A stretch of 45,491 nt of DNA from sequence record PQ141284.1; one strand, 5' to 3'. Position numbers and translations under genes: made by a program. Source of the DNA: Escherichia phage fEg-Eco06. The number at the start of each line of letters is the position of its first letter. The first letter of the stretch is position 1. This document shows, piece after piece, positions 66 through 44,505 of the stretch. Under the pieces are notes generated by a model that was given only the letters and a program-made list of their open reading frames with translations, made no database searches and was not told the DNA's origin.

Positions 66-94
66 TTGCACACTGAGATAGAATAGGCTACTAT
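66..94 (+). promoter_or_regulatory. sigma70-like promoter, TTGCAC-N17-TACTATTCA family
   Basis: TTGCAC 66-71, 17-nt spacer, TACTAT 89-94. Same architecture at 11553-11581(-), 21098-21126(-) and 44443-44471(+). Confidence 0.5.
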
Positions 95-125
95 TCATTT
101 ACGCAAACGAGAGGAGAGACTGAAG

Positions 126-4758: not shown

Positions 4759-4928
4759 TGTTCAGTGACATTAACGCGGCAATCGAAGAAGCAATCTGGC
4801 GTCGCTACAACGGCGAGCAACAACGGCATTTCTGCCTGGTGCAACGCGGTAACATGATTGCCGTAGTGCAGGACCGCGATAACAAATATCCGAATGCGAT
4901 GTGGACAACGAGGAATTTTTTAGGATGA
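4758..4928 (+). CDS. small hypothetical protein (56 aa, below track cutoff)
   Basis: Hand translation gives MFSDINAAIEEAIWRRYNGEQQRHFCLVQRGNMIAVVQDRDNKYPNAMWTTRNFLG*. ATGA overlap with the next start at 4925. Confidence 0.45.
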   Translation: MFSDINAAIEEAIWRRYNGEQQRHFCLVQRGNMIAVVQDRDNKYPNAMWTTRNFLG

Positions 4929-5161
4929 TTACCAGCATTCCGAACCTGATTAAAGAATTCGGCACGATGGCCGAGACGTGCCGGCAAACCGGCATCAACG
5001 AAATGACGATTGCGAAGTACAGCAAAGACGTTGATTGCGAGCGCCACGTAATTTATAACAATCGTCTGATGACACATGTTAAGACAAGCCCGGTGTTATT
5101 CACGCGCCGAGGTATCACTAAAACTGAGCAACGCATTGCTAAAGGGGAGAGTGGGGAATGA
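4925..5161 (+). CDS. putative HTH DNA-binding protein
   Basis: MITSIPNLIKEFGTMAETCRQTGINEMTIAKYSK has a helix-turn-helix-like pattern. The start was chosen for its ATGA coupling; the track ORF begins at 4901. Confidence 0.45.
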   Translation: MITSIPNLIKEFGTMAETCRQTGINEMTIAKYSKDVDCERHVIYNNRLMTHVKTSPVLFTRRGITKTEQRIAKGESGE

Positions 5162-8860: not shown

Positions 8861-10831
8861 ATGCTATTAACTTTAGTACCACAGGGTTTAACTATGAGCT
8901 TACTTACATCCCTCATCAGCCATCAGATATGGCTGCAACGCACCGCATCCGGTGAGGTGAAAGACCTCACACCGTTCATTCAGGAGATGCGGGATGAAAT
9001 TAAACGGCAGGTGCTGTTATTCGGTGACGACGGTCGTAGCACTGCGCGACTGAATAAATTGTTACGCGACCTTGAGGAAGCACTAACCGGACTTACGGGC
9101 GACTGGCAGACAAAGCTGACAGAAGACCTTAAGGAACTGGCGGCGTATGAGGCCGAGTGGAACGTAAAGACTCTGACCGCCAACGTTAACGCGGAATTTG
9201 TTACCCCTACCGCGGAACAGGTGTGGGCCGCTGCCGAGTTTCAGCCATTATCGTTGAGTGACAAGCCCGTTGATTTCACTAAGCTGATGGACGGCTGGGG
9301 TGAAACAGAAGTCGCGCGCCTGGTAACCGGCGTTAAGATGGGCTTTGTACAAGGCCAAACCACACGGCAGATTGTTAAGAACGTCGTAGGCGCTGGCGGA
9401 CTGGCGGACATCTCTGAGCGTAACGCGGCCACCGTAATCCGTACTGCACTGTCTCACGTATCCAACGAAGCACGTAACGAGACGTACCGCCAGAACGACG
9501 ACATCATCGAGAAATATGAGTGGGTGTCTACGCTGGACAGCCGTACCAGTACAACGTGTTTCACGGCTGAAACAGAATTAGCGCCCATCGCGGGGATGGA
9601 CGCGGTAATGCGCGGACTCTATTCAGGAAAAATCTTTACCATCGAACTTTCCAACGGCGAGAAGTTCAGTGGCACCCCGAAACACCCTGTACTCACGCAA
9701 TACGGATGGACTCCGCTTGATGAACTCGATCCAACTAAGCATGTCTTGTATACCACTGTTGACAAAGTGACTGTGCTCGAAACAGTGAAGAACATAAACA
9801 TGCCAGCCAGAGCGGATTATATTTTTAATACGCTCGCTGATTTCCCCATCAGGAAAATGGTAAGCACGAGTCCCGCGGCAACAGATTTCTATGGCGATGG
9901 AGTGGGACTCAATGGCAAAATCGACATTGTACGGGCCGATTGCAAACTGCGGAACTACGTCCACGCCAGCGGAATTAAACAATTCAAAAGCGAGGGTTTC
10001 AGTCTTATTCATAGCGCCGCTTTGCTGTCGGACGATAGCTCTGGCGATTTTCTCCTCCGGGGTGAATGTCCTGTGAGTGTGCCCGCGCTTAGCGAGGCCA
10101 AGTGTTTTGACCATAGAATAGAAAACTGTTTTGCTTACTTGGGTCCTTCTTATGCACTCAATAGGCGGGACGCCGGACTCGAACAATTCTATAGCCCTTT
10201 TTTGATTCAAAATGGTGTCGTTAGAAACCCAACCACGGGGTCGATCATGCATGAGTCCGAGCTTCTTGAGAAATGTTGTTACCGTGGTGGTAGTGACGCC
10301 GTAATTCTTGGCTATGATGCTGGCGGGAGTGCCATCTCGGTACAAAGAACAAATATCATCCGCATAAGCGTCGAGTTTAGAACGTGCCATGTTTATACCC
10401 TCTCTAGTAGTCAAGGATATTATACAGCAGGTAGTGCGATAGTCAAGAATTGCAGGGCCAGAGACGGGATGGCGTGGGAAATCGGTAAAGGTCCGATGCC
10501 CCCCGCCCATCCGAACTGTCGAAGTACCACTGCACCTGTAATCAGTTCGGAGTTCGACTTCCTGGATAAAGGCGCAAAACGCGCGGCTAAGGGTGCAGAA
10601 GGCGGCACTCAGGTAAGCGCAGACACCACATATTACGAGTTCCTGAAACAACAGCCCGCATGGTTTCAGGACCAGGCGCTCGGCCCGGTGCGAGGTAAGA
10701 TTTTCCGTAACAGCGGTATATCGCCGGAAGAGTTTCGCGTAATATCTGTAGATGGTTTCGGGAATCCGCTCACGCTTAAGCAGATGGCGGAACTCGATAA
10801 ACGTGTTGCTGATTATCTGAAAGGGGGATAA
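8861..10831 (+). CDS. head morphogenesis protein (Mu F / SPP1 gp7-like), intein-containing precursor
   Basis: 656-aa ORF. The extein halves join as ...EWVSTLDSRTSTT / CRARDGMAWEIGKGPMPPAHPNCRST, the Mu-F-type C-terminal motif. The predicted spliced product is 358 aa. An alternative start is ATG 8894. Confidence 0.75.
   Translation: MLLTLVPQGLTMSLLTSLISHQIWLQRTASGEVKDLTPFIQEMRDEIKRQVLLFGDDGRSTARLNKLLRDLEEALTGLTGDWQTKLTEDLKELAAYEAEWNVKTLTANVNAEFVTPTAEQVWAAAEFQPLSLSDKPVDFTKLMDGWGETEVARLVTGVKMGFVQGQTTRQIVKNVVGAGGLADISERNAATVIRTALSHVSNEARNETYRQNDDIIEKYEWVSTLDSRTSTTCFTAETELAPIAGMDAVMRGLYSGKIFTIELSNGEKFSGTPKHPVLTQYGWTPLDELDPTKHVLYTTVDKVTVLETVKNINMPARADYIFNTLADFPIRKMVSTSPAATDFYGDGVGLNGKIDIVRADCKLRNYVHASGIKQFKSEGFSLIHSAALLSDDSSGDFLLRGECPVSVPALSEAKCFDHRIENCFAYLGPSYALNRRDAGLEQFYSPFLIQNGVVRNPTTGSIMHESELLEKCCYRGGSDAVILGYDAGGSAISVQRTNIIRISVEFRTCHVYTLSSSQGYYTAGSAIVKNCRARDGMAWEIGKGPMPPAHPNCRSTTAPVISSEFDFLDKGAKRAAKGAEGGTQVSADTTYYEFLKQQPAWFQDQALGPVRGKIFRNSGISPEEFRVISVDGFGNPLTLKQMAELDKRVADYLKGG
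9623..10390 (-). CDS. putative homing endonuclease (two HTH motifs plus Vsr/DUF559-like PD-(D/E)XK domain) encoded antisense within the intein
   Basis: 255 aa from ATG 10390 (MARSKLDAYADD...). SD AGAGAGGG lies 7 nt upstream. HTH-like segments are GTPASIIAKNYGVTTTTVTTFLKKLGL and GVPPIECIRRTQVSKTVFYSMVKTLGL. The nuclease-like core is ETLAFELF...QFAIGPYNVDFAI..HSIAIEI...SGWHVYVL. Confidence 0.65.
   Translation of the reverse strand: MARSKLDAYADDICSLYRDGTPASIIAKNYGVTTTTVTTFLKKLGLMHDRPRGWVSNDTILNQKRAIELFESGVPPIECIRRTQVSKTVFYSMVKTLGLAKRGHTHRTFTPEEKIARAIVRQQSGAMNKTETLAFELFNSAGVDVVPQFAIGPYNVDFAIESHSIAIEICCRGTRAYHFPDGEISERIKNIIRSGWHVYVLHCFEHSHFVNSGIQDMLSWIEFIKRSPSVLREYRVFRGATELLAVGKFDGKDFS
10419..10446 (-). 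promoter_or_regulatory. near-consensus sigma70 promoter for the antisense endonuclease gene
   Basis: On the minus strand: TTGACT (10446-10441), 16-nt spacer, TATAAT (10424-10419). This lies 28 nt upstream of ATG 10390 and inside the intein C-terminal splicing-block codons. Confidence 0.65.
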
Positions 10832-11296: not shown

Positions 11297-11322
11297 AGGC
11301 CCCGTTATGGGGCCTTAGTTTT
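11297..11322. terminator. bidirectional rho-independent terminator
   Basis: AGGCCCC (11297-11303), loop GTTAT, GGGGCCT (11309-11315), then TAGTTTT. Lies between convergent genes. Confidence 0.65.
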
Positions 11323-11525
11323 CAACGGAATCTTGTGTTTAAATCCTGCTCATGGACAACCCTCAGAACAGTGTCATAATCCCCGTATCTTCCAGGTTCA
11401 AATATATCTAATGCCTTGTAAGCAGACATTGCGTCAGGGAAAACCTGCAGAACCTTTTTAACCCGGCACAAGTCACCGTCGAACTCTTCATCGAACTCTT
11501 GAACTACTTCGCAAATTGCATACAT
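11322..11525 (-). CDS. hypothetical protein
   Basis: 67-aa ORF with a perfect SD AGGAGGTGA upstream of ATG 11525 and its own promoter. Confidence 0.65.
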   Translation of the reverse strand: MYAICEVVQEFDEEFDGDLCRVKKVLQVFPDAMSAYKALDIFEPGRYGDYDTVLRVVHEQDLNTRFR

Positions 11526-11552
11526 TTTTCACCTCCTGTTTAAGTTAACTGA

Positions 11553-11581
11553 ATAGTACCCTATTATATTGGTGTGTGCAA
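11553..11581 (-). promoter_or_regulatory. promoter, TTGCAC-N17-TACTATTCA family
   Basis: On the minus strand: TTGCAC (11581-11576), 17 nt, TACTAT (11558-11553). Near-identical over ~35 nt to 21098-21126(-) and 44443-44471(+). Confidence 0.55.
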
Positions 11582-11603
11582 ACTATTTATTTACGTATTC
11601 CAG

Positions 11604-11634
11604 TTATTCCACTCAATTGTAAATGTTGGAATAA
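11604..11634. repeat. inverted repeat TTATTCCA-N15-TGGAATAA (operator-like)
   Basis: TTATTCCA at 11604-11611 and TGGAATAA at 11627-11634. ATGTTGGAATAA recurs at 12406-12417. Confidence 0.4.
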
Positions 11635-11647
11635 ACTATTCGAATAG

Positions 11648-11676
11648 TTGACTTTTCACTAAAAATGTGCTAAGCT
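11648..11676 (+). promoter_or_regulatory. sigma70-like promoter (candidate late promoter)
   Basis: TTGACT 11648-11653, 17-nt spacer, TAAGCT 11671-11676. Confidence 0.5.
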
Positions 11677-11682
11677 CCACCT

Positions 11683-11880
11683 GAGCTTGTGAAGTATGAA
11701 CAAGCGACCGCGGCGCGGGCAGGTAACGGAGCGGGACGTAAGTCCTGAGTGTAGTTACGCTGACGCGTTCGGAAGGGCCATACTCTATTGCTTGTGTAAA
11801 AAGTAACTGGTTTACTGAGATTACGCCGTTTCTATGTTTAAATGATAAGGACTAGCGCCCCGCTTTAAGGCGGGGCTTTA
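11683..11880 (+). ncRNA. ~200-nt noncoding leader / short terminated transcript upstream of late genes
   Basis: No ORF of 60 aa or more. Bounded by the promoter at 11648-11676 and the terminator at 11857-11880. An internal hairpin GCTTGT...ACAAGC lies at about 11686-11706. Confidence 0.35.
11857..11880 (+). terminator. rho-independent terminator/attenuator just upstream of Rz
   Basis: GCCCCGC (11857-11863), 6-nt loop, GCGGGGC (11870-11876), then TTTA. Confidence 0.5.
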
Positions 11881-11900
11881 CTTATCGAGAAAGGGGAAAC

Positions 11901-12287
11901 ATGAATCTTAAAGCAACTGTCGTGGCAGGAGCATGTTTCATCATCCTGGCTTACACACACGGCATCTACCAGTATCGCAGCGGCTGGAACGAAGGCCGGG
12001 CGAATCTCGTTTCGCAGCAACAGCAGAAAGTACAGGCTGAGTTAGCGAAGAAAACACAACGGCAGCAGCAGGATGAATCAAAGGCCGCCGCCGCCGACAA
12101 CGAAGGCAAGACGAAATCAGAGGTGATTACCCGTGAAGTCGTTAAGTACATTAAAACGCCTGGTCGCAGCGTGTGCACTTTTGACGATGCTCGCGTCCTG
12201 CTCAAGTCCCGCGCCGTCGCCAACGCCAATTCCATCTCCGGATACGACGATGATGCAGCCGCCGTGCAAGCTGGCGCCACCAAGTAG
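11901..12287 (+). CDS. Rz: i-spanin (Rz-like)
   Basis: 128 aa. N-terminal TMD (VVAGACFIILAYTHGIY), then a Gln/charged coiled-coil periplasmic domain. Contains or overlaps a lipoprotein ORF in another frame. Confidence 0.7.
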   Translation: MNLKATVVAGACFIILAYTHGIYQYRSGWNEGRANLVSQQQQKVQAELAKKTQRQQQDESKAAAADNEGKTKSEVITREVVKYIKTPGRSVCTFDDARVLLKSRAVANANSISGYDDDAAAVQAGATK

Positions 12288-12396: not shown

Positions 12397-12478
12397 TTGC
12401 CTTGCATGTTGGAATAATTTATTCTTGACATGTAAATCCGGGTGGCCCGGATTCCAACGTCCAGGGGACATACTGACT

Positions 12479-14232: not shown

Positions 14233-14248
14233 GGTTAAGCTATAATCG

Positions 14249-14272
14249 AGAGGGACTTCGGTCCCTCTTTTC
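14249..14272 (+). terminator. rho-independent terminator after capsid gene
   Basis: AGAGGGAC (14249-14256), loop TTCG, GTCCCTCT (14261-14268), then TTTT. Confidence 0.7.
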
Positions 14273-18631: not shown

Positions 18632-18656
18632 AAGGCCCCTTTCGGGGCCTTTTTCT
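18632..18656. terminator. bidirectional rho-independent terminator
   Basis: AAGGCCCC, loop TTTC, GGGGCCTT, then TTTTC. The complement is also followed by T-rich sequence. Lies between convergent genes. Confidence 0.75.
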
Positions 18657-19210
18657 TACAAACCTAATTTTAAAGCAATGTCTATAACGTTCGATTTAAC
18701 GTCACCCGGTATGATGTAGGTGTCGTAATCTTTTACACCACTAACATCATACAGATAGCCACGGCTATCGCCGATGAACGTATAGCCGTCACGATGGAGG
18801 CGAACGATTTGCACGTCATGCCCTGCGGCGACGATAGGGGCAACTTCACTGGCGAATCCACCGTCGGACACTACAAAAACTTCGTCGCCGTCAGGCAAGT
18901 TTTCAGCAAGATACTTACCGAAATAATCATCGCCGAATACCGGTTTAATGAATTGCTCAGAAATGGCAATCATTAACTGGCGGCGGGACAACCCATTAAG
19001 AAAACCCTCGGGTTTTTCTTTCCGCGCCCGGTCGTCGTAGCCGTCGAGAAATTCGTGGTAAGCATCCTGGCCTAACGCTGCCAAAGCAATATTGAACATC
19101 GGATTCTTGAAACGGGTAGTTCCTTTCGCAAAGCCCATCTCTACCAGCGCCCTAGCAAGTGTGTCTTTCCCACAACCAGCAGGGCCATTAAGAATAATTA
19201 CCTTAGCCAT
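18656..19210 (-). CDS. P-loop kinase, dNMP-kinase-like
   Basis: The N-terminal MAKVIILNGPAGCGKDT is a Walker A motif. At 184 aa it is the size of small nucleotide kinases. Confidence 0.55.
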   Translation of the reverse strand: MAKVIILNGPAGCGKDTLARALVEMGFAKGTTRFKNPMFNIALAALGQDAYHEFLDGYDDRARKEKPEGFLNGLSRRQLMIAISEQFIKPVFGDDYFGKYLAENLPDGDEVFVVSDGGFASEVAPIVAAGHDVQIVRLHRDGYTFIGDSRGYLYDVSGVKDYDTYIIPGDVKSNVIDIALKLGL

Positions 19211-19698
19211 TACTTATCACTCCCGTGTGATTTTAAGTGTGTAGAGTCCCCGTTACAGTCGTACTCAGTGACCGCGTGTGTCGTGATTCCTAAGCCACGG
19301 AAATGCTTAATCACCGCGGGAGAGTCGTCGAATGCGCACAAGATTCTTTCCAGTCCGAAAGCACGCAACACCTCTTCTTTAATTACGATGTCTTTTCTGT
19401 TGTCGTGTTTGCTGCGCATGATTAGCGTGTCAAACCTAACGTTATTCTCTCGTAACCATTCGCGAGTCTCCTCCTCAGCGTCATCACTTCGCCCGGTAAG
19501 GATAATTATAGTAAGTCCGGAATGCCACAGTACGCTACACAAATGGATATTGTCGTATATCGGAGCGTCATCTTTGCAGGCCATGTTAAATGGCTTCCAC
19601 GCCCACGTTTCTCCGTAGTTATCTTTTGGTAACAGGTGTAAGCGATGGGTACCGTCGGCCAATGTCCCGTCTAAATCGAAAATTACAATATCTTTCAT
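19210..19698 (-). CDS. HAD-superfamily phosphatase (PNK-phosphatase / nucleotidase-like)
   Basis: MKDIVIFDLDGTLADGTHR carries the DxDGT motif I. ILTGRSD is motif II-like. Confidence 0.6.
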   Translation of the reverse strand: MKDIVIFDLDGTLADGTHRLHLLPKDNYGETWAWKPFNMACKDDAPIYDNIHLCSVLWHSGLTIIILTGRSDDAEEETREWLRENNVRFDTLIMRSKHDNRKDIVIKEEVLRAFGLERILCAFDDSPAVIKHFRGLGITTHAVTEYDCNGDSTHLKSHGSDK

Positions 19699-20825
19699 CC
19701 CAGCATCTCCGGTGAAATAGTTAAACGTGCGACCTCGCCATATTCGGCGCTATAAGTAATTACATTTGCACTGCGGCCCGACATCCATCCGCCGCGAGAG
19801 GCGTAGGCGTCTTTAGCCGCTAAGGTGCGGTGTTGCTCAACAATCATGTTACGGCTTTCTACAATCTTCTGGTGGTGCAGATGTCCTACGTGGGCGTAGC
19901 TGTAAACACTCTCGCCGAACGCTTTACGGAACTTGGCAATCATAACCGGTTCGATAGCGTCGAATCGTGCTTTATGCCCGTGATGGAAGAACAGCGTCGT
20001 TTTGCCGTGTTGCACCATCTTATAAACATCCGGCGACGTATCGACGAATACACGAGGCTCGTTGTCGTACAGTGTGCTGAACATCTCCGCCAGCCAAATC
20101 ATCCCGGATTCGTCGTGGTTCCCCTGAACTATAAGCAAGCGAACAGTTTTATGCTTAACCAGAGCCATATCAACAACACGGCGGACCATGCGAATCATGT
20201 AGCGGACAAGTTTCTGGTAACGCGTGTCGGCGTCAAGGACATGACCACTCGCCGGTGTAACGGCGTCAAGACTATCGAAGTGAGCTAAGTCGCCAAGAAG
20301 ATTAATAACCCCCGTACCTGCATCCGGTGCTTTCTGAAACGCAGCATCAAACCAACGAGAGAATAAGTCCTCCGCGATTTTCATATCCCAGTCGTCGCCG
20401 CTCTCGTCAGCCCAGGCTAACATACCGAGATGGAAATCAGACACGGTGTACAGGTTAAGCAGCTTGTCGTCACGTTTAGCCCGGGCGGCCTTAACTGGCG
20501 GAACGGGAGTAATCTCCGACTTCATGCCTTCGACTACGGCTTTCATCAACTCAACCTGACGTTCGGCATCGGTGTCTGTCTTAACCCACTGCAACTTAGT
20601 GTTACCGAACTCGTCCACCAGAGACGACGTGCCTTTAATCTTGTAGCCGTCTGGTACAAGGTGGCTTACGTCCCGCCCGTGGCCTACGCCTTTCTTAGCC
20701 AGCTTCGCTTTACGGATTCGGATAACGCGGTCTGAGATTCCGTATTTACGGGCGATATCGATATTCTTCATCCCGGCGTTCAATTCTTCCTGTAATTGCT
20801 CGTCGGTTATTTTCTTCTGGGCCAT
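19695..20825 (-). CDS. metallophosphoesterase with N-terminal HTH domain
   Basis: N-terminal NIDIARKYGISDRVIRIRKAKL is HTH-like. Calcineurin-like motifs DFHLGM, GDLAHFD, QGNHDE, HHGH and GHLHH follow. Confidence 0.6.
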   Translation of the reverse strand: MAQKKITDEQLQEELNAGMKNIDIARKYGISDRVIRIRKAKLAKKGVGHGRDVSHLVPDGYKIKGTSSLVDEFGNTKLQWVKTDTDAERQVELMKAVVEGMKSEITPVPPVKAARAKRDDKLLNLYTVSDFHLGMLAWADESGDDWDMKIAEDLFSRWFDAAFQKAPDAGTGVINLLGDLAHFDSLDAVTPASGHVLDADTRYQKLVRYMIRMVRRVVDMALVKHKTVRLLIVQGNHDESGMIWLAEMFSTLYDNEPRVFVDTSPDVYKMVQHGKTTLFFHHGHKARFDAIEPVMIAKFRKAFGESVYSYAHVGHLHHQKIVESRNMIVEQHRTLAAKDAYASRGGWMSGRSANVITYSAEYGEVARLTISPEMLG

Positions 20826-21082: not shown

Positions 21083-21097
21083 CGTTGGTGTAAGTGA

Positions 21098-21126
21098 ATA
21101 GTACGCTATTATATTGGGGTGTGCAA
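21098..21126 (-). promoter_or_regulatory. promoter, TTGCAC-N17-TACTATTCA family, driving the leftward island
   Basis: On the minus strand: TTGCAC (21126-21121), 17 nt, TACTAT (21103-21098). Confidence 0.55.
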
Positions 21127-21233
21127 GTAGTGTGCTAGAATAATTTTGCGCCTAGTGTCGCACACGAAAAGCGGGTGGTTCCCGTCTGGCGCATTTCCTT
21201 TAACCAGTAACCTCTTAACCAAAGGATTAAAGA

Positions 21234-37841: not shown

Positions 37842-37870
37842 ACTATAATAGCTAACTATTCATGTGTCAA
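37842..37870 (-). promoter_or_regulatory. promoter, TTGACA-N17-TATAGT family
   Basis: On the minus strand: TTGACA (37870-37865), 17 nt, TATAGT (37847-37842). Overlaps the 3' end of the upstream ORF. Confidence 0.55.
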
Positions 37871-40763: not shown

Positions 40764-40792
40764 ACTATAATAGCGAACTATTCACATGTCAA
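40764..40792 (-). promoter_or_regulatory. promoter, TTGACA-N17-TATAGT family
   Basis: On the minus strand: TTGACA (40792-40787), 17 nt, TATAGT (40769-40764). Confidence 0.6.
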
Positions 40793-40816
40793 TGGGCTTT
40801 TCTAAAATAATTAATA

Positions 40817-40825
40817 TGGTACTAT
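40817..40825 (+). promoter_or_regulatory. candidate extended -10 promoter for XRE gene
   Basis: TGgTACTAT at 40817-40825. The -35 (CTTTTC) is poor. Divergent from the 40764-40792 promoter. Confidence 0.35.
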
Positions 40826-40856
40826 TCACATATTAACTGACTAAGGAGTAATTGAC

Positions 40857-41072
40857 ATGCAACCATCTGAACTAGGCATCCGTATGGAACAACGCCGTAA
40901 AGAACTCGGCATCTCCCAGCGCCGTCTGGCTGTCCTGACTGGCGTTTCTCAGGGCGCGATTAACCAACTGGCACTTGGAGTAACTCAGGACGTCCGCCCG
41001 GCGACGCTGTTTAAACTGGCGGAAGTGCTTGAAGTAGACGCCAAGTGGTTGGCGTTAGGTGAAGGGGCTTAA
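40857..41072 (+). CDS. XRE-family HTH transcriptional regulator (Cro/CI-like)
   Basis: RRKELGISQRRLAVLTGVSQGAINQLALG is a classic HTH_3 signature. AAGGAG SD. Confidence 0.8.
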   Translation: MQPSELGIRMEQRRKELGISQRRLAVLTGVSQGAINQLALGVTQDVRPATLFKLAEVLEVDAKWLALGEGA

Positions 41073-43605: not shown

Positions 43606-43839
43606 TTATTCCAGGTCTTCTAAAGTAGCTGTCATTCCGCGAACTTCAGCATCAGCGCTATATTTCCCACCAACGTTTTTCACGACACCGGATTTAACCA
43701 GCACCTTCAACGACCCTTCAATAATGGCTGAACTATAGTACTTAAAATAACTACGGCGCAAGTCGATAACACTGCATGACCCTTTTTTACGTGTTAACGA
43801 AACGACCGCCGTAAATACGCGTGACTGGAACTCTGTCAT
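43606..43839 (-). CDS. hypothetical small protein (possible winged-helix)
   Basis: 77-aa ORF, ATGA-coupled to the upstream HTH gene. Confidence 0.5.
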   Translation of the reverse strand: MTEFQSRVFTAVVSLTRKKGSCSVIDLRRSYFKYYSSAIIEGSLKVLVKSGVVKNVGGKYSADAEVRGMTATLEDLE

Positions 43840-44006
43840 TTCACATTCTCCTTAATCCACGCTTCCACTTTCTCTGGGTCAAACGTACCGGGCTGACGAC
43901 GGCCCATAATGCGAATACAGCAATCAGGGAACTTCCCACTCTTTAGCCAGTTATTCAGCGTTCGACGAGTAACCCCAATACGCTCAGCTACTTCATTCTG
44001 TGTCAT
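43836..44006 (-). CDS. small HTH DNA-binding protein (MerR/excisionase-like fold)
   Basis: MTQNEVAERIGVTRRTLNNWLKSGKFP. ATG 44006 lies behind GAGGG; the track gives TTG 44039. Confidence 0.6.
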   Translation of the reverse strand: MTQNEVAERIGVTRRTLNNWLKSGKFPDCCIRIMGRRQPGTFDPEKVEAWIKENVK

Positions 44007-44082
44007 TCTCAAACCCTCATTATCAGTTAACGAAACCAAGTATACATTGCGAATAATGGGAAATCAAACATAATCGCACCTA

Positions 44083-44111
44083 TTGACATTATGAAAATCT
44101 TCGTTTAAGGT
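44083..44111 (+). promoter_or_regulatory. sigma70-like promoter
   Basis: TTGACA 44083-44088, 17-nt spacer, TAAGGT 44106-44111. Confidence 0.45.
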
Positions 44112-44344
44112 GCTTCTATATCTTAGTTACTTTGATTCCTGTTCACCTTGTAATACCCGCTTGAAACGCAGCGGCGCCAAAGCGCCAGCGAAGTGTTAAG
44201 CGGCAGATTACTGAACATAAGAATTACCGTAACTTTCCTTCCGTAGTATCTCTGGTTGCCCTGGGCAAGTTCTATTCTCATCGGCAGCATATCTCTTAAG
44301 TATATGATAATTAAAAGTTTCTATAGTTGCCGTGAGCAATGTTG

Positions 44345-44403
44345 AGAGTACTTCACTCCGCTGGGGTGGGCTAACGCCCACCCACTGCGTTGCGTACTCT
44401 TTT
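44345..44403 (+). terminator. compound stem-loop / terminator-like structure
   Basis: The inner stem pairs GGGTGGGC (44364-44371) with GCCCACCC (44376-44383). The outer stem pairs AGAGTAC (44345-44351) with GTACTCT (44394-44400). TTT follows. Confidence 0.4.
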
Positions 44404-44442
44404 AAGAAACGAAAGAATCACAGCGGCAACGTAACTATTCTC

Positions 44443-44471
44443 TTGCACACCCCAACATAATAGGGTACTAT
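44443..44471 (+). promoter_or_regulatory. promoter, TTGCAC-N17-TACTATTCA family
   Basis: TTGCAC 44443-44448, 17 nt, TACTAT 44466-44471. Drives the rightward ORFs from 44506. Confidence 0.55.
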
Positions 44472-44505
44472 TCACTTATCGAAACGAGACAGAGGAGTGA
44501 GGGTT

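Follow-up and report, generated by a model that had tools for sequence, protein, structure and literature searches.

A conserved, covarying leader RNA predicted to start at the promoter of the spanin–capsid operon in Kagunavirus-type phages

The genome of Escherichia phage fEg-Eco06 (PQ141284.1; 45,491 nucleotides (nt), referred to below as the window) carries between positions 11648 and 11900 a promoter, a region with no long open reading frame (ORF) and a terminator-like hairpin, immediately upstream of the i-spanin gene Rz. Comparison of related genomes shows that this element is genuine and conserved: a structured leader RNA, apparently not described before, to which a promoter and a putative attenuator are attached. 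Its first ~110 nt, hereafter the module, have a conserved fold whose base pairs covary between variants, and define by sequence comparison a family not in Rfam and apparently undescribed. The module probably controls transcript elongation or stability. The locus itself forms the 5' leader of an operon that runs from Rz/Rz1 through scaffold, capsid and neck to tail, in a siphophage of Kagunavirus type (Guernseyvirinae). A first-pass annotation had placed here a strong promoter, a GCTTGT/ACAAGC hairpin, a GC-rich terminator (11857-11880) and the Rz ATG 20 nt further on. These components lie where it put them and are conserved, and what follows downstream does have late functions. The features of the leader are as follows.

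11648-11676 (+): sigma-70-type promoter TTGACT-17 nt-TGc-TAAGCT, read from the sequence; predicted start ~11683
11683-11794 (+): structured RNA module, not in Rfam, defined by covariance model R1, pair counts and RNAalifold
11685-11690 / 11700-11705 (+): helix P1, 6 base pairs (bp), GCTTGT pairing with ACAAGC, beginning 2 nt from the predicted 5' end
11708-11710 / 11770-11772 (+): helix P2a, from the covariance model
11712-11717 / 11764-11769 (+): helix P2b, from the covariance model
11720-11722 / 11760-11762 (+): helix P3, from the covariance model
11723-11727 / 11754-11758 (+): helix P4, from the covariance model
11731-11732 / 11749-11750 (+): helix P4a, 2 bp, from RNAalifold
11733-11737 / 11742-11746 (+): helix P5 with a GUAA loop, from the covariance model
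11706-11708, 11728-11732, 11747-11753, 11773-11790 (+): conserved segments listed as unpaired, respectively GAC, GGAGC, GAGUGUA and the tail AAGGGCC...UCUAUUG
11802-11816 (+): small hairpin AGUAA/UUACU in the spacer between module and terminator, from RNAalifold on 28 distinct late leaders
11844-11886 (+): intrinsic-terminator-like hairpin, stem 11857-11864/11869-11876, loop UUAA, U-tract UUUACUUAU at 11877-11885
11893-11903 (+): Shine-Dalgarno GGGG (11893-11896) and Rz ATG (11901), from sequence, ORF list and homology

The module is composed of a 5'-terminal hairpin, a GAC linker and an irregular rod of ~65 nt formed by P2a, P2b, P3, P4, P4a and P5. Model R1 was built from 13 near-identical late copies and a hand-derived structure, and was then used to align all variants. 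Covariation was counted on 24 distinct sequences, including a divergent Jerseyvirus form; as this alignment was fitted to the model, it favours the structure. Standard pairs occupy 96.8% of the cells, versus 32-45% when the partners are slid by one to three columns, and in 17 of the 28 pairs both partners have changed. With 0.469, the covariation score exceeds that of shuffled alignments (0.145), none of 500 shuffles reaching the observed value. A free RNAalifold run on the model-guided alignment recovered the same helices and added a 2-bp helix in the internal loop, which covaries between GC, GU and AU. Folding and covariation across related phages, the check put forward with the first-pass annotation, thus returned a covarying fold.

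The constraint is unevenly distributed along the module. The base of the rod (ACCGCGG.GCG / CGC.UUCGG), the internal loop (GNAGC / GAGYGUA) and the tail (GGAAGGGCC...UCUAUUG) are near-invariant; the interior helices vary by compensatory change and all hairpin loops are variable. At the same site, most Jerseyviruses have a divergent form that keeps the fold with a different sequence (42.7 bits). Aligning mixed variant types with MAFFT before RNAalifold misaligned the rod and gave a poor structure, and the model-guided alignment was used instead. A pairing of AGUAUG in the P1 loop with a downstream CAUACU, as pseudoknot or alternative helix, is possible in the window and preferred by RNAalifold on late copies; it was rejected as not conserved, being lost without compensation in other late copies and in all early ones.

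The module is fused to its promoter. The -35 hexamer TTGACT (11648-11653) is separated by a 17-nt spacer from the -10 hexamer TAAGCT (11671-11676), directly preceded by TGc, i.e. an extended -10. In 32 of 32 distinct copies from public genomes the -35, the TG and the -10 are unchanged while the spacer and the discriminator vary, and in the same 32 copies the module starts at the predicted +1, at the same distance from the same promoter. The extended promoter pattern occurs once in the window for 0.00 occurrences expected, the pattern itself being derived from this sequence. The promoter is missed by a generic sigma-70 scan, since its -10, TAAGCT, agrees with TATAAT at only three of six positions. 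The first-pass description of a "strong" promoter therefore loses its adjective; the promoter itself is borne out by the invariance of its hexamers and TG.

The locus is well conserved in Guernseyvirinae. A 1-kilobase (kb) stretch around the element is 95-98% identical to the Escherichia Kagunavirus phages SCS92, NTEC3 and Bas70-76, and past window position ~11530 it is ~96% identical to many Salmonella Jersey-like phages. The gene order is that of Bas74: terminase, portal, head-morphogenesis protein, Hoc-like protein, a small leftward gene, the Rz/Rz1 spanins, scaffold, major head protein, neck and tail, those from Rz/Rz1 onwards being assigned from their homologues in annotated Bas74. Across 180 phage records (~180 Guernseyvirinae genomes) the identity of the 370-nt intergenic block is 95-99.7%, a conservation about equal to that of the flanking genes and not higher.

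The module is not confined to the late operon. A distant BLAST match of 83% identity led to the early region of other Kagunaviruses. There, in about 43 genomes, the promoter reappears together with the ~110 nt that follow it, 3' of a divergent AlpA-like helix-turn-helix (HTH) gene, and aligning these early copies with that of the window reveals evident compensatory changes. The match in PQ561396 was first taken for a P4-like satellite but belongs to the early region of a further Kagunavirus. The module is combined with at least three unrelated hairpins downstream of it: GCCCCGC, GGGTGGGC and GGTGCC. In early leaders it is followed either by the GGGTGGGC hairpin, lying inside AGAGTAC/GTACTCT-TTTT, or by a GGTGCC-TTCG-GGCACC hairpin with a T-rich tail. 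The early GGGTGGGC hairpin is itself preceded either by this module or by a different RNA, module X, and one variant of the module is found at the late site of one phage and at the early site of a second (L036 and L005). Since the module is exchanged among unrelated terminators, its action, whatever it may be, is independent of pairing with a particular one. This modularity argues against an aptamer-terminator riboswitch and against a late-specific device.

Outside these phages we found little. No similar sequence exists in 5,426 complete E. coli genomes; one plasmid-labelled record matched and is probably a phage. Species-representative genomes gave chance matches only, apart from one mis-binned Kagunavirus contig, and in a pattern scan of IMG/VR all confirmed matches lie on Guernseyvirinae-like contigs of 40-45 kb. 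The leaders upstream of an Rz-like gene in Serratia phage Otaku (L158, ~1125-1195) and Cornellvirus SP-031 (L159, ~989-1090) share CAUUCGGAA, GUAGUGAGC and GGAAGGGUC. They were not counted as members: the models score them at chance level and the order of helices is different. In Otaku no hairpin lies between the leader and the gene. Within the window neither BLAST nor a pattern search nor the covariance model run without filters detected a second copy; the model just touched the apex of the early leader (10.8 bits).

Searches of known families gave no assignment. Against Rfam 15, region 11500-12000 scored at best 14-17 bits for thresholds of 35-75; nothing was found for the Jersey, Cornell, Serratia or type-B variants, nor anything relevant to this region in the whole window. 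The searchable literature contained no transcript map or RNA element described for Guernseyvirinae (Kagunavirus, Jerseyvirus), and no tRNA or tmRNA was found in the window.

Between the module and Rz lies the terminator-like hairpin, about 65 nt downstream here and about 65-100 nt overall. Its 8-bp stem contains seven G-C pairs and one G-U, followed by TTTACTTAT, and the GC-rich hairpin 11857-11876 is the best terminator-like site in a 6-kb scan. Among variants one compensatory stem change is found (GCCCTGC/GCAGGGC), the loop is variable and the U-tract invariant. The pre-Rz hairpin holds its place in three genera while its U-tract decays from UUUACUUAU to UUAGCGUAU to UGUUACGAU, those of Jersey- and Cornellvirus being the poorer. 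Because the U-tract is imperfect here and poorer in these two genera, the hairpin is more likely, as far as its sequence tells, a leaky attenuator than a tight block like lambda tR'.

Scans found no other promoter between the bidirectional terminator at 11297-11315 and Rz, nor any promoter-like site within 11880-11900. The mRNA of Rz, scaffold and capsid must therefore read through 11857-11880. A further strong terminator follows the capsid gene (14248-14269), with no phage-type promoter after it. In the spacer, the stem of the 11802-11816 hairpin is kept while its loop varies (CTGG, CAGG, CGGG, CTTG). RNAalifold also predicts that GAUAAG (11844-11849) pairs with CUUAUC (11881-11886), extending the base of the terminator, with no covariation, and that GUUUCU (11828-11833) pairs with 11895-11900, enclosing the terminator in a near-invariant sequence that leaves no room for a covariation test. 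This long-range pairing is predicted to cover partly the Rz ribosome-binding site in read-through mRNA. Three other resemblances were discarded: a hammerhead-like CUGAUGA/GUC in the spacer, without Rfam support; the terminator as a type I-E CRISPR repeat, whose flanking handle is missing; and a boxA-like reading of CUCUAUUG, too weak and too variable.

We favour, tentatively and with a probability of roughly 0.38, the view that the module is a cis-acting leader modulating elongation or termination of the polymerase that made it, resembling the put sites of phage HK022 in logic and not in ancestry. Host RNA polymerase would initiate at ~11683. Some transcripts would stop at ~11880, giving an RNA of ~195 nt, and the remaining ones would read through; no other source of mRNA for Rz, scaffold and capsid is evident. 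As put does, the module would bind RNA polymerase, or else a factor close to the exit channel of the RNA, and thereby raise read-through of the leader terminator and of later ones, e.g. 14248-14269. Early versus late timing would be set separately, probably by a DNA-binding protein at a palindrome upstream of the -35. This reading is preferred because the module is obligatorily fused to +1, heads operons containing terminators and is indifferent to the terminator that follows. It is also preferred because conservation is centred on the junction, the internal loop and the tail and not on the hairpin loops, the pattern that would be expected of a binding surface.

HK022 putL and putR were read from NC_002166, guided by a cryo-electron microscopy study in which putL is fused to PL (PMC9378689). 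Like putL, the module is a structured RNA placed right after a phage promoter, in the orientation of a long operon containing terminators that have to be read through. Both have two stem-loop domains with a conserved junction, are present in more than one operon of one genome and come with no recognisable dedicated antiterminator protein. Antitermination by put acts in cis, needs no phage protein and is abolished by mutations in the zinc-binding domain of beta' (rpoC). In contrast, put is ~70 nt with two similar stems while the ~110 nt of the module form a short and a long domain, and put phages are temperate lambdoids while fEg-Eco06 is a virulent siphophage. The module has no similarity in sequence or covariance model to putL or putR, whose family is marked by two stems and the conserved segments GAACGGC, GGAUGA and CAAUG.

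Several points weigh against such a cis-acting role. The start site, the termination and the read-through are all predictions. Folded as a single sequence, the 203-nt leader is not unusually stable (z = -1.57), so the evidence for the fold is comparative. Models R1 and R2 found no match in the HK022 put locus at E up to 10, and no common motif was apparent by eye. Early leaders have a second phage-type promoter, TTGCAC-17-TACTAT, after the hairpin and before the first gene, and the early promoter-RNA-hairpin unit looks like a self-contained gene. Constitutive antitermination would leave a terminator right after the module without obvious purpose, and an attenuator after the capsid gene is what would be expected of a polymerase that is not resistant to termination.

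To our knowledge HK022 put is the only phage example of antitermination by RNA alone. A stronger claim goes with the put-like reading: the module would be a second, evolutionarily independent class of RNA-only processive antiterminator, reprogramming E. coli or Salmonella RNA polymerase in a virulent phage subfamily, at early and structural-gene promoters, as an exchangeable promoter-plus-RNA cassette. We consider this full version rather unlikely. If true, it would provide a second, unrelated solution to compare with put. Guernseyvirinae (Kagunavirus, Jerseyvirus) are among the most often isolated phages of E. coli and Salmonella and are used in biocontrol, therapy and as synthetic-biology chassis; a covarying RNA fused to a promoter start offers a short, directly testable handle on the drive and timing of capsid-gene expression.

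The self-contained aspect of the early unit favours a stand-alone small RNA (sRNA) gene, an explanation that we consider doubtful though worth keeping in view. An abundant RNA of ~195 nt would act in trans as protein sponge, decoy or regulator, read-through into Rz being incidental or secondary; it would then be a new phage sRNA. The unit has its own promoter and terminator-like 3' end, hairpins at its 5' terminus and 3' end would stabilise the RNA, and the separate early promoter 3' of the hairpin makes the unit dispensable for transcribing the early genes. Yet Rz, scaffold and capsid have no promoter but this one; a spacer of about 65-100 nt separates the module from the hairpin, and the U-tracts of Jersey- and Cornellvirus are poor. 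The hairpin loops, usual seeds of sRNAs, are not conserved, complementarity to the rest of the phage is at chance level (one 12-mer only), and the E. coli genomes searched hold nothing similar. The first-pass annotation had offered as options a processive-antitermination RNA or a stable non-coding RNA; both gain plausibility from the conserved covarying structure of the first ~110 nt.

A processing or stability element appears unlikely. The rod would be a substrate of RNase III (or RNase E) and the 5' hairpin an end protector, together setting the half-life and translation of the structural mRNA, like the T7 R-sites or the lambda N leader. The start of P1 2 nt from the predicted 5' end would suit this role, as would the rod of ~24 bp broken by an asymmetric internal loop; such a loop in a hairpin is the general shape of T7 RNase III sites. 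The T7 and lambda N leader hairpins are likewise long, irregular and repeated at transcription-unit boundaries, and reuse of the module at several operon starts and the long-range pairing predicted partly over the Rz ribosome-binding site agree with it. However, the module always stands at promoter +1 and carries invariant single-stranded motifs: stabilising hairpins need no conserved sequence, and yet the junction, the internal loop and the tail are near-invariant. The pairing over the ribosome-binding site does not covary, and the terminator is left unexplained.

The first-pass annotation had compared the locus with lambda pR'-6S-tR', supposing that a phage antiterminator reads through a terminated leader. 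Lambdoid pR' constitutively makes a short terminated 6S RNA unless Q modifies RNA polymerase. In the corresponding explanation a Q-like phage protein would load at the promoter and read through a tight terminator, the short RNA being a 6S-like by-product; we regard it as improbable. The resemblance is genuine in layout, with a promoter, a predicted terminated non-coding RNA of ~195 nt and a terminator-like hairpin before lysis and head genes as in pR'-qut-6S-tR', and a putative protein-binding palindrome adjoins the promoter. But the palindrome lies upstream of the -35 and not between -35 and -10, and selection acts on the RNA fold, something that a Q-type system would not require. The module also heads the early operon in about 43 phages, where it would act before any phage protein can exist. 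No -10-like pause element is conserved in the initial transcribed region (first ~20 nt): in the variants fPoEco01 and L151, GATATC or GTTATC stands in place of the candidate AAGTAT (+10 to +15). A scan of 20 small or unknown proteins with PHROGs and Pfam, which is not exhaustive, revealed no homologue of the Q or N families, in agreement with the first-pass annotation, which had recognised no Q. Of the proposed control logic there stand the conserved promoter, the predicted non-coding transcript and the terminator-like hairpin before the late operon; the late-specific, Q-type features are not supported.

A riboswitch, with the module as aptamer for a small molecule and the terminator as expression platform, is very improbable. 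Covarying stems, conserved junction and loop nucleotides and a terminator are its classic signature. But the terminator is ~65 nt away with no conserved alternative pairing with the module, no structure lies directly 5' of it as a "tug-of-war" design requires, the module is swapped among leaders with unrelated terminators while the same hairpin also follows a different module, and no Rfam aptamer matches.

That the region acts through a small protein is hardly credible. The candidate is the longest plus-strand ORF between the promoter and Rz:

11696-11806 (+): 36-amino-acid (aa) ORF, annotated as hypothetical protein in Bas74 and several relatives

Although ATG-initiated and annotated, this ORF has no Shine-Dalgarno, its start codon lies inside the P1 loop, and substitutions across it keep base pairs and not codons. 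Among variants the ATG is missing in five and others are cut to 9, 17, 19 or 22 aa. Because neither ATG nor frame is conserved among variants, we judge from these comparisons that it is not a gene, and the annotation of this "hypothetical protein" in public genomes should be removed. The first-pass statement that ~200 nt lack an ORF of 60 aa or more thus holds, and no conserved small ORF explains the region in its place.

Coming back to the preferred cis-acting leader, its timing leads to the sequence upstream of the promoter, where two overlapping palindromes can be read and a self-complementary match was also obtained.

11629-11647 (no strand assigned): GAATA-AAC-TATTC (11629-11641) and CTATTCGAATAG (11636-11647)

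These palindromes are a candidate regulator-binding site. Candidate regulators encoded in the window are the XRE-type (40857-41072), an AlpA-like (43836-44009) and a NinH-like protein (4901-5161). GAATA-AAC-TATTC stops 6 nt short of the -35 and is centred at about -48 relative to the predicted start. GGAATA-N3-TATTC is found likewise 6 nt before the -35 in Jerseyvirus Ent3 and Cornellvirus SP-031, i.e. in three genera including this one. The homologous promoters are weak there: TAGACT/TACGCT in Ent3 and TGGATT/TAACCT in SP-031. GAATA-N3-TATTC is present in late copies of the promoter and missing from early copies. Its conservation in three genera, together with the weak Jersey- and Cornellvirus hexamers, suggests that the timing of the late promoter is set at initiation, by a DNA-binding protein at the palindrome.

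A second palindrome, GAATA-ATT-TATTC, lies at 12412-12430 (+) between Rz1 and the scaffold gene and directly adjoins a TTGACA hexamer. A hairpin, AATCCGGG/CCCGGATT, comes next, and no good -10 is visible there. This may be a second regulated promoter, or a site for the protein that would bind 11629-11641.

The early leader of the window is of another kind (44083-44410, +). Its promoter, TTGACA-17-TAAGGT (44083-44111), differs from that of the module, and module X, a very stable ~110-nt long hairpin (44119-44306), precedes the GGGTGGGC hairpin. The ~290 nt from 44119 to 44410 have a fold z of -5.4 and comprise module X, a UUGCCCUGGGCAA hairpin and a terminator-like AGAGUAC...GUACUCU-UUUU; a second promoter and the first early gene come only after the hairpins. 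Module X is the common early form (368 phage records), and the early leader carrying it has no Rfam match. Model R2 matches the apex of module X weakly (10.8 bits), with a shared layout of RAGC, a GC hairpin and AGCG(A/U)A, a hint that module and module X might be of common descent.

A further structured RNA stands before the tail genes. The int-alpA RNA (RF02996) matches 21145-21209 (+) with 36.6 bits for a threshold of 35.8. Within 21116-21209, the match starts near +1 of a TGc-TAGAAT promoter-like site, and it is directly 5' of the tail-chaperone and tape-measure genes. It resembles the module in its position at ~+1 of a TGn-extended promoter-like site, in the stem and U-rich run at its end and in preceding the tail operon; its fold and sequence are unrelated. 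The phage repeatedly places structured RNAs at operon starts, the int-alpA match being the third.

Apart from these leaders, the window contains a repeated promoter/operator element, whose 32-nt form TTGCACAC.CCAA.ATAATAG.GTACTATTCA is present in three copies and can be read as a promoter, TTGCAC-17-TACTAT, that contains an inverted repeat. In early leaders one copy stands 3' of the leader hairpin, before the first gene. Its core ATAATAGNNTACTATTCA (inverted repeat AATAG-N4-CTATT) is found at seven sites for 0.02 expected, at operon starts and on both strands.

80-97 (+), 11550-11581 (-), 21095-21126 (-), 37845-37862, 40767-40784, 40811-40828, 44443-44474 (+): sites of the ATAATAGNNTACTATTCA element

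This element corresponds to the PHIRE "phage promoter" consensus reported for the related phage fBC-Eco01 (PMC9825357), though these phages encode no RNA polymerase. Two of its copies flank an XRE-type HTH gene (40857-41072), whose product is, judging from this arrangement, likely to bind it.

Two insertions were observed in the structural region. The Mu-F-like head-morphogenesis gene (8861-10831, +) encodes 656 aa versus 347 aa in Bas74. Its in-frame insert matches an intein-splicing domain weakly, below threshold. On the opposite strand, 9623-10651 (-), an ORF of 254-342 aa has weak matches to HTH_7 and to PD-(D/E)xK restriction-endonuclease-like domains and its own promoter, TTGACT-16-TATAAT (10446-10419). 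The insert may thus be an intein with a homing endonuclease encoded antisense. Finally, three leftward genes (18656-20825, -) are inserted between the major tail gene and the tail chaperones. They encode a P-loop kinase-like protein (weak AAA_18), a PNKP-type HAD phosphatase (4.5e-20) and a metallophosphoesterase-like protein (weak). These matches suggest a cassette for the repair of RNA or DNA ends, possibly directed against host nucleases.

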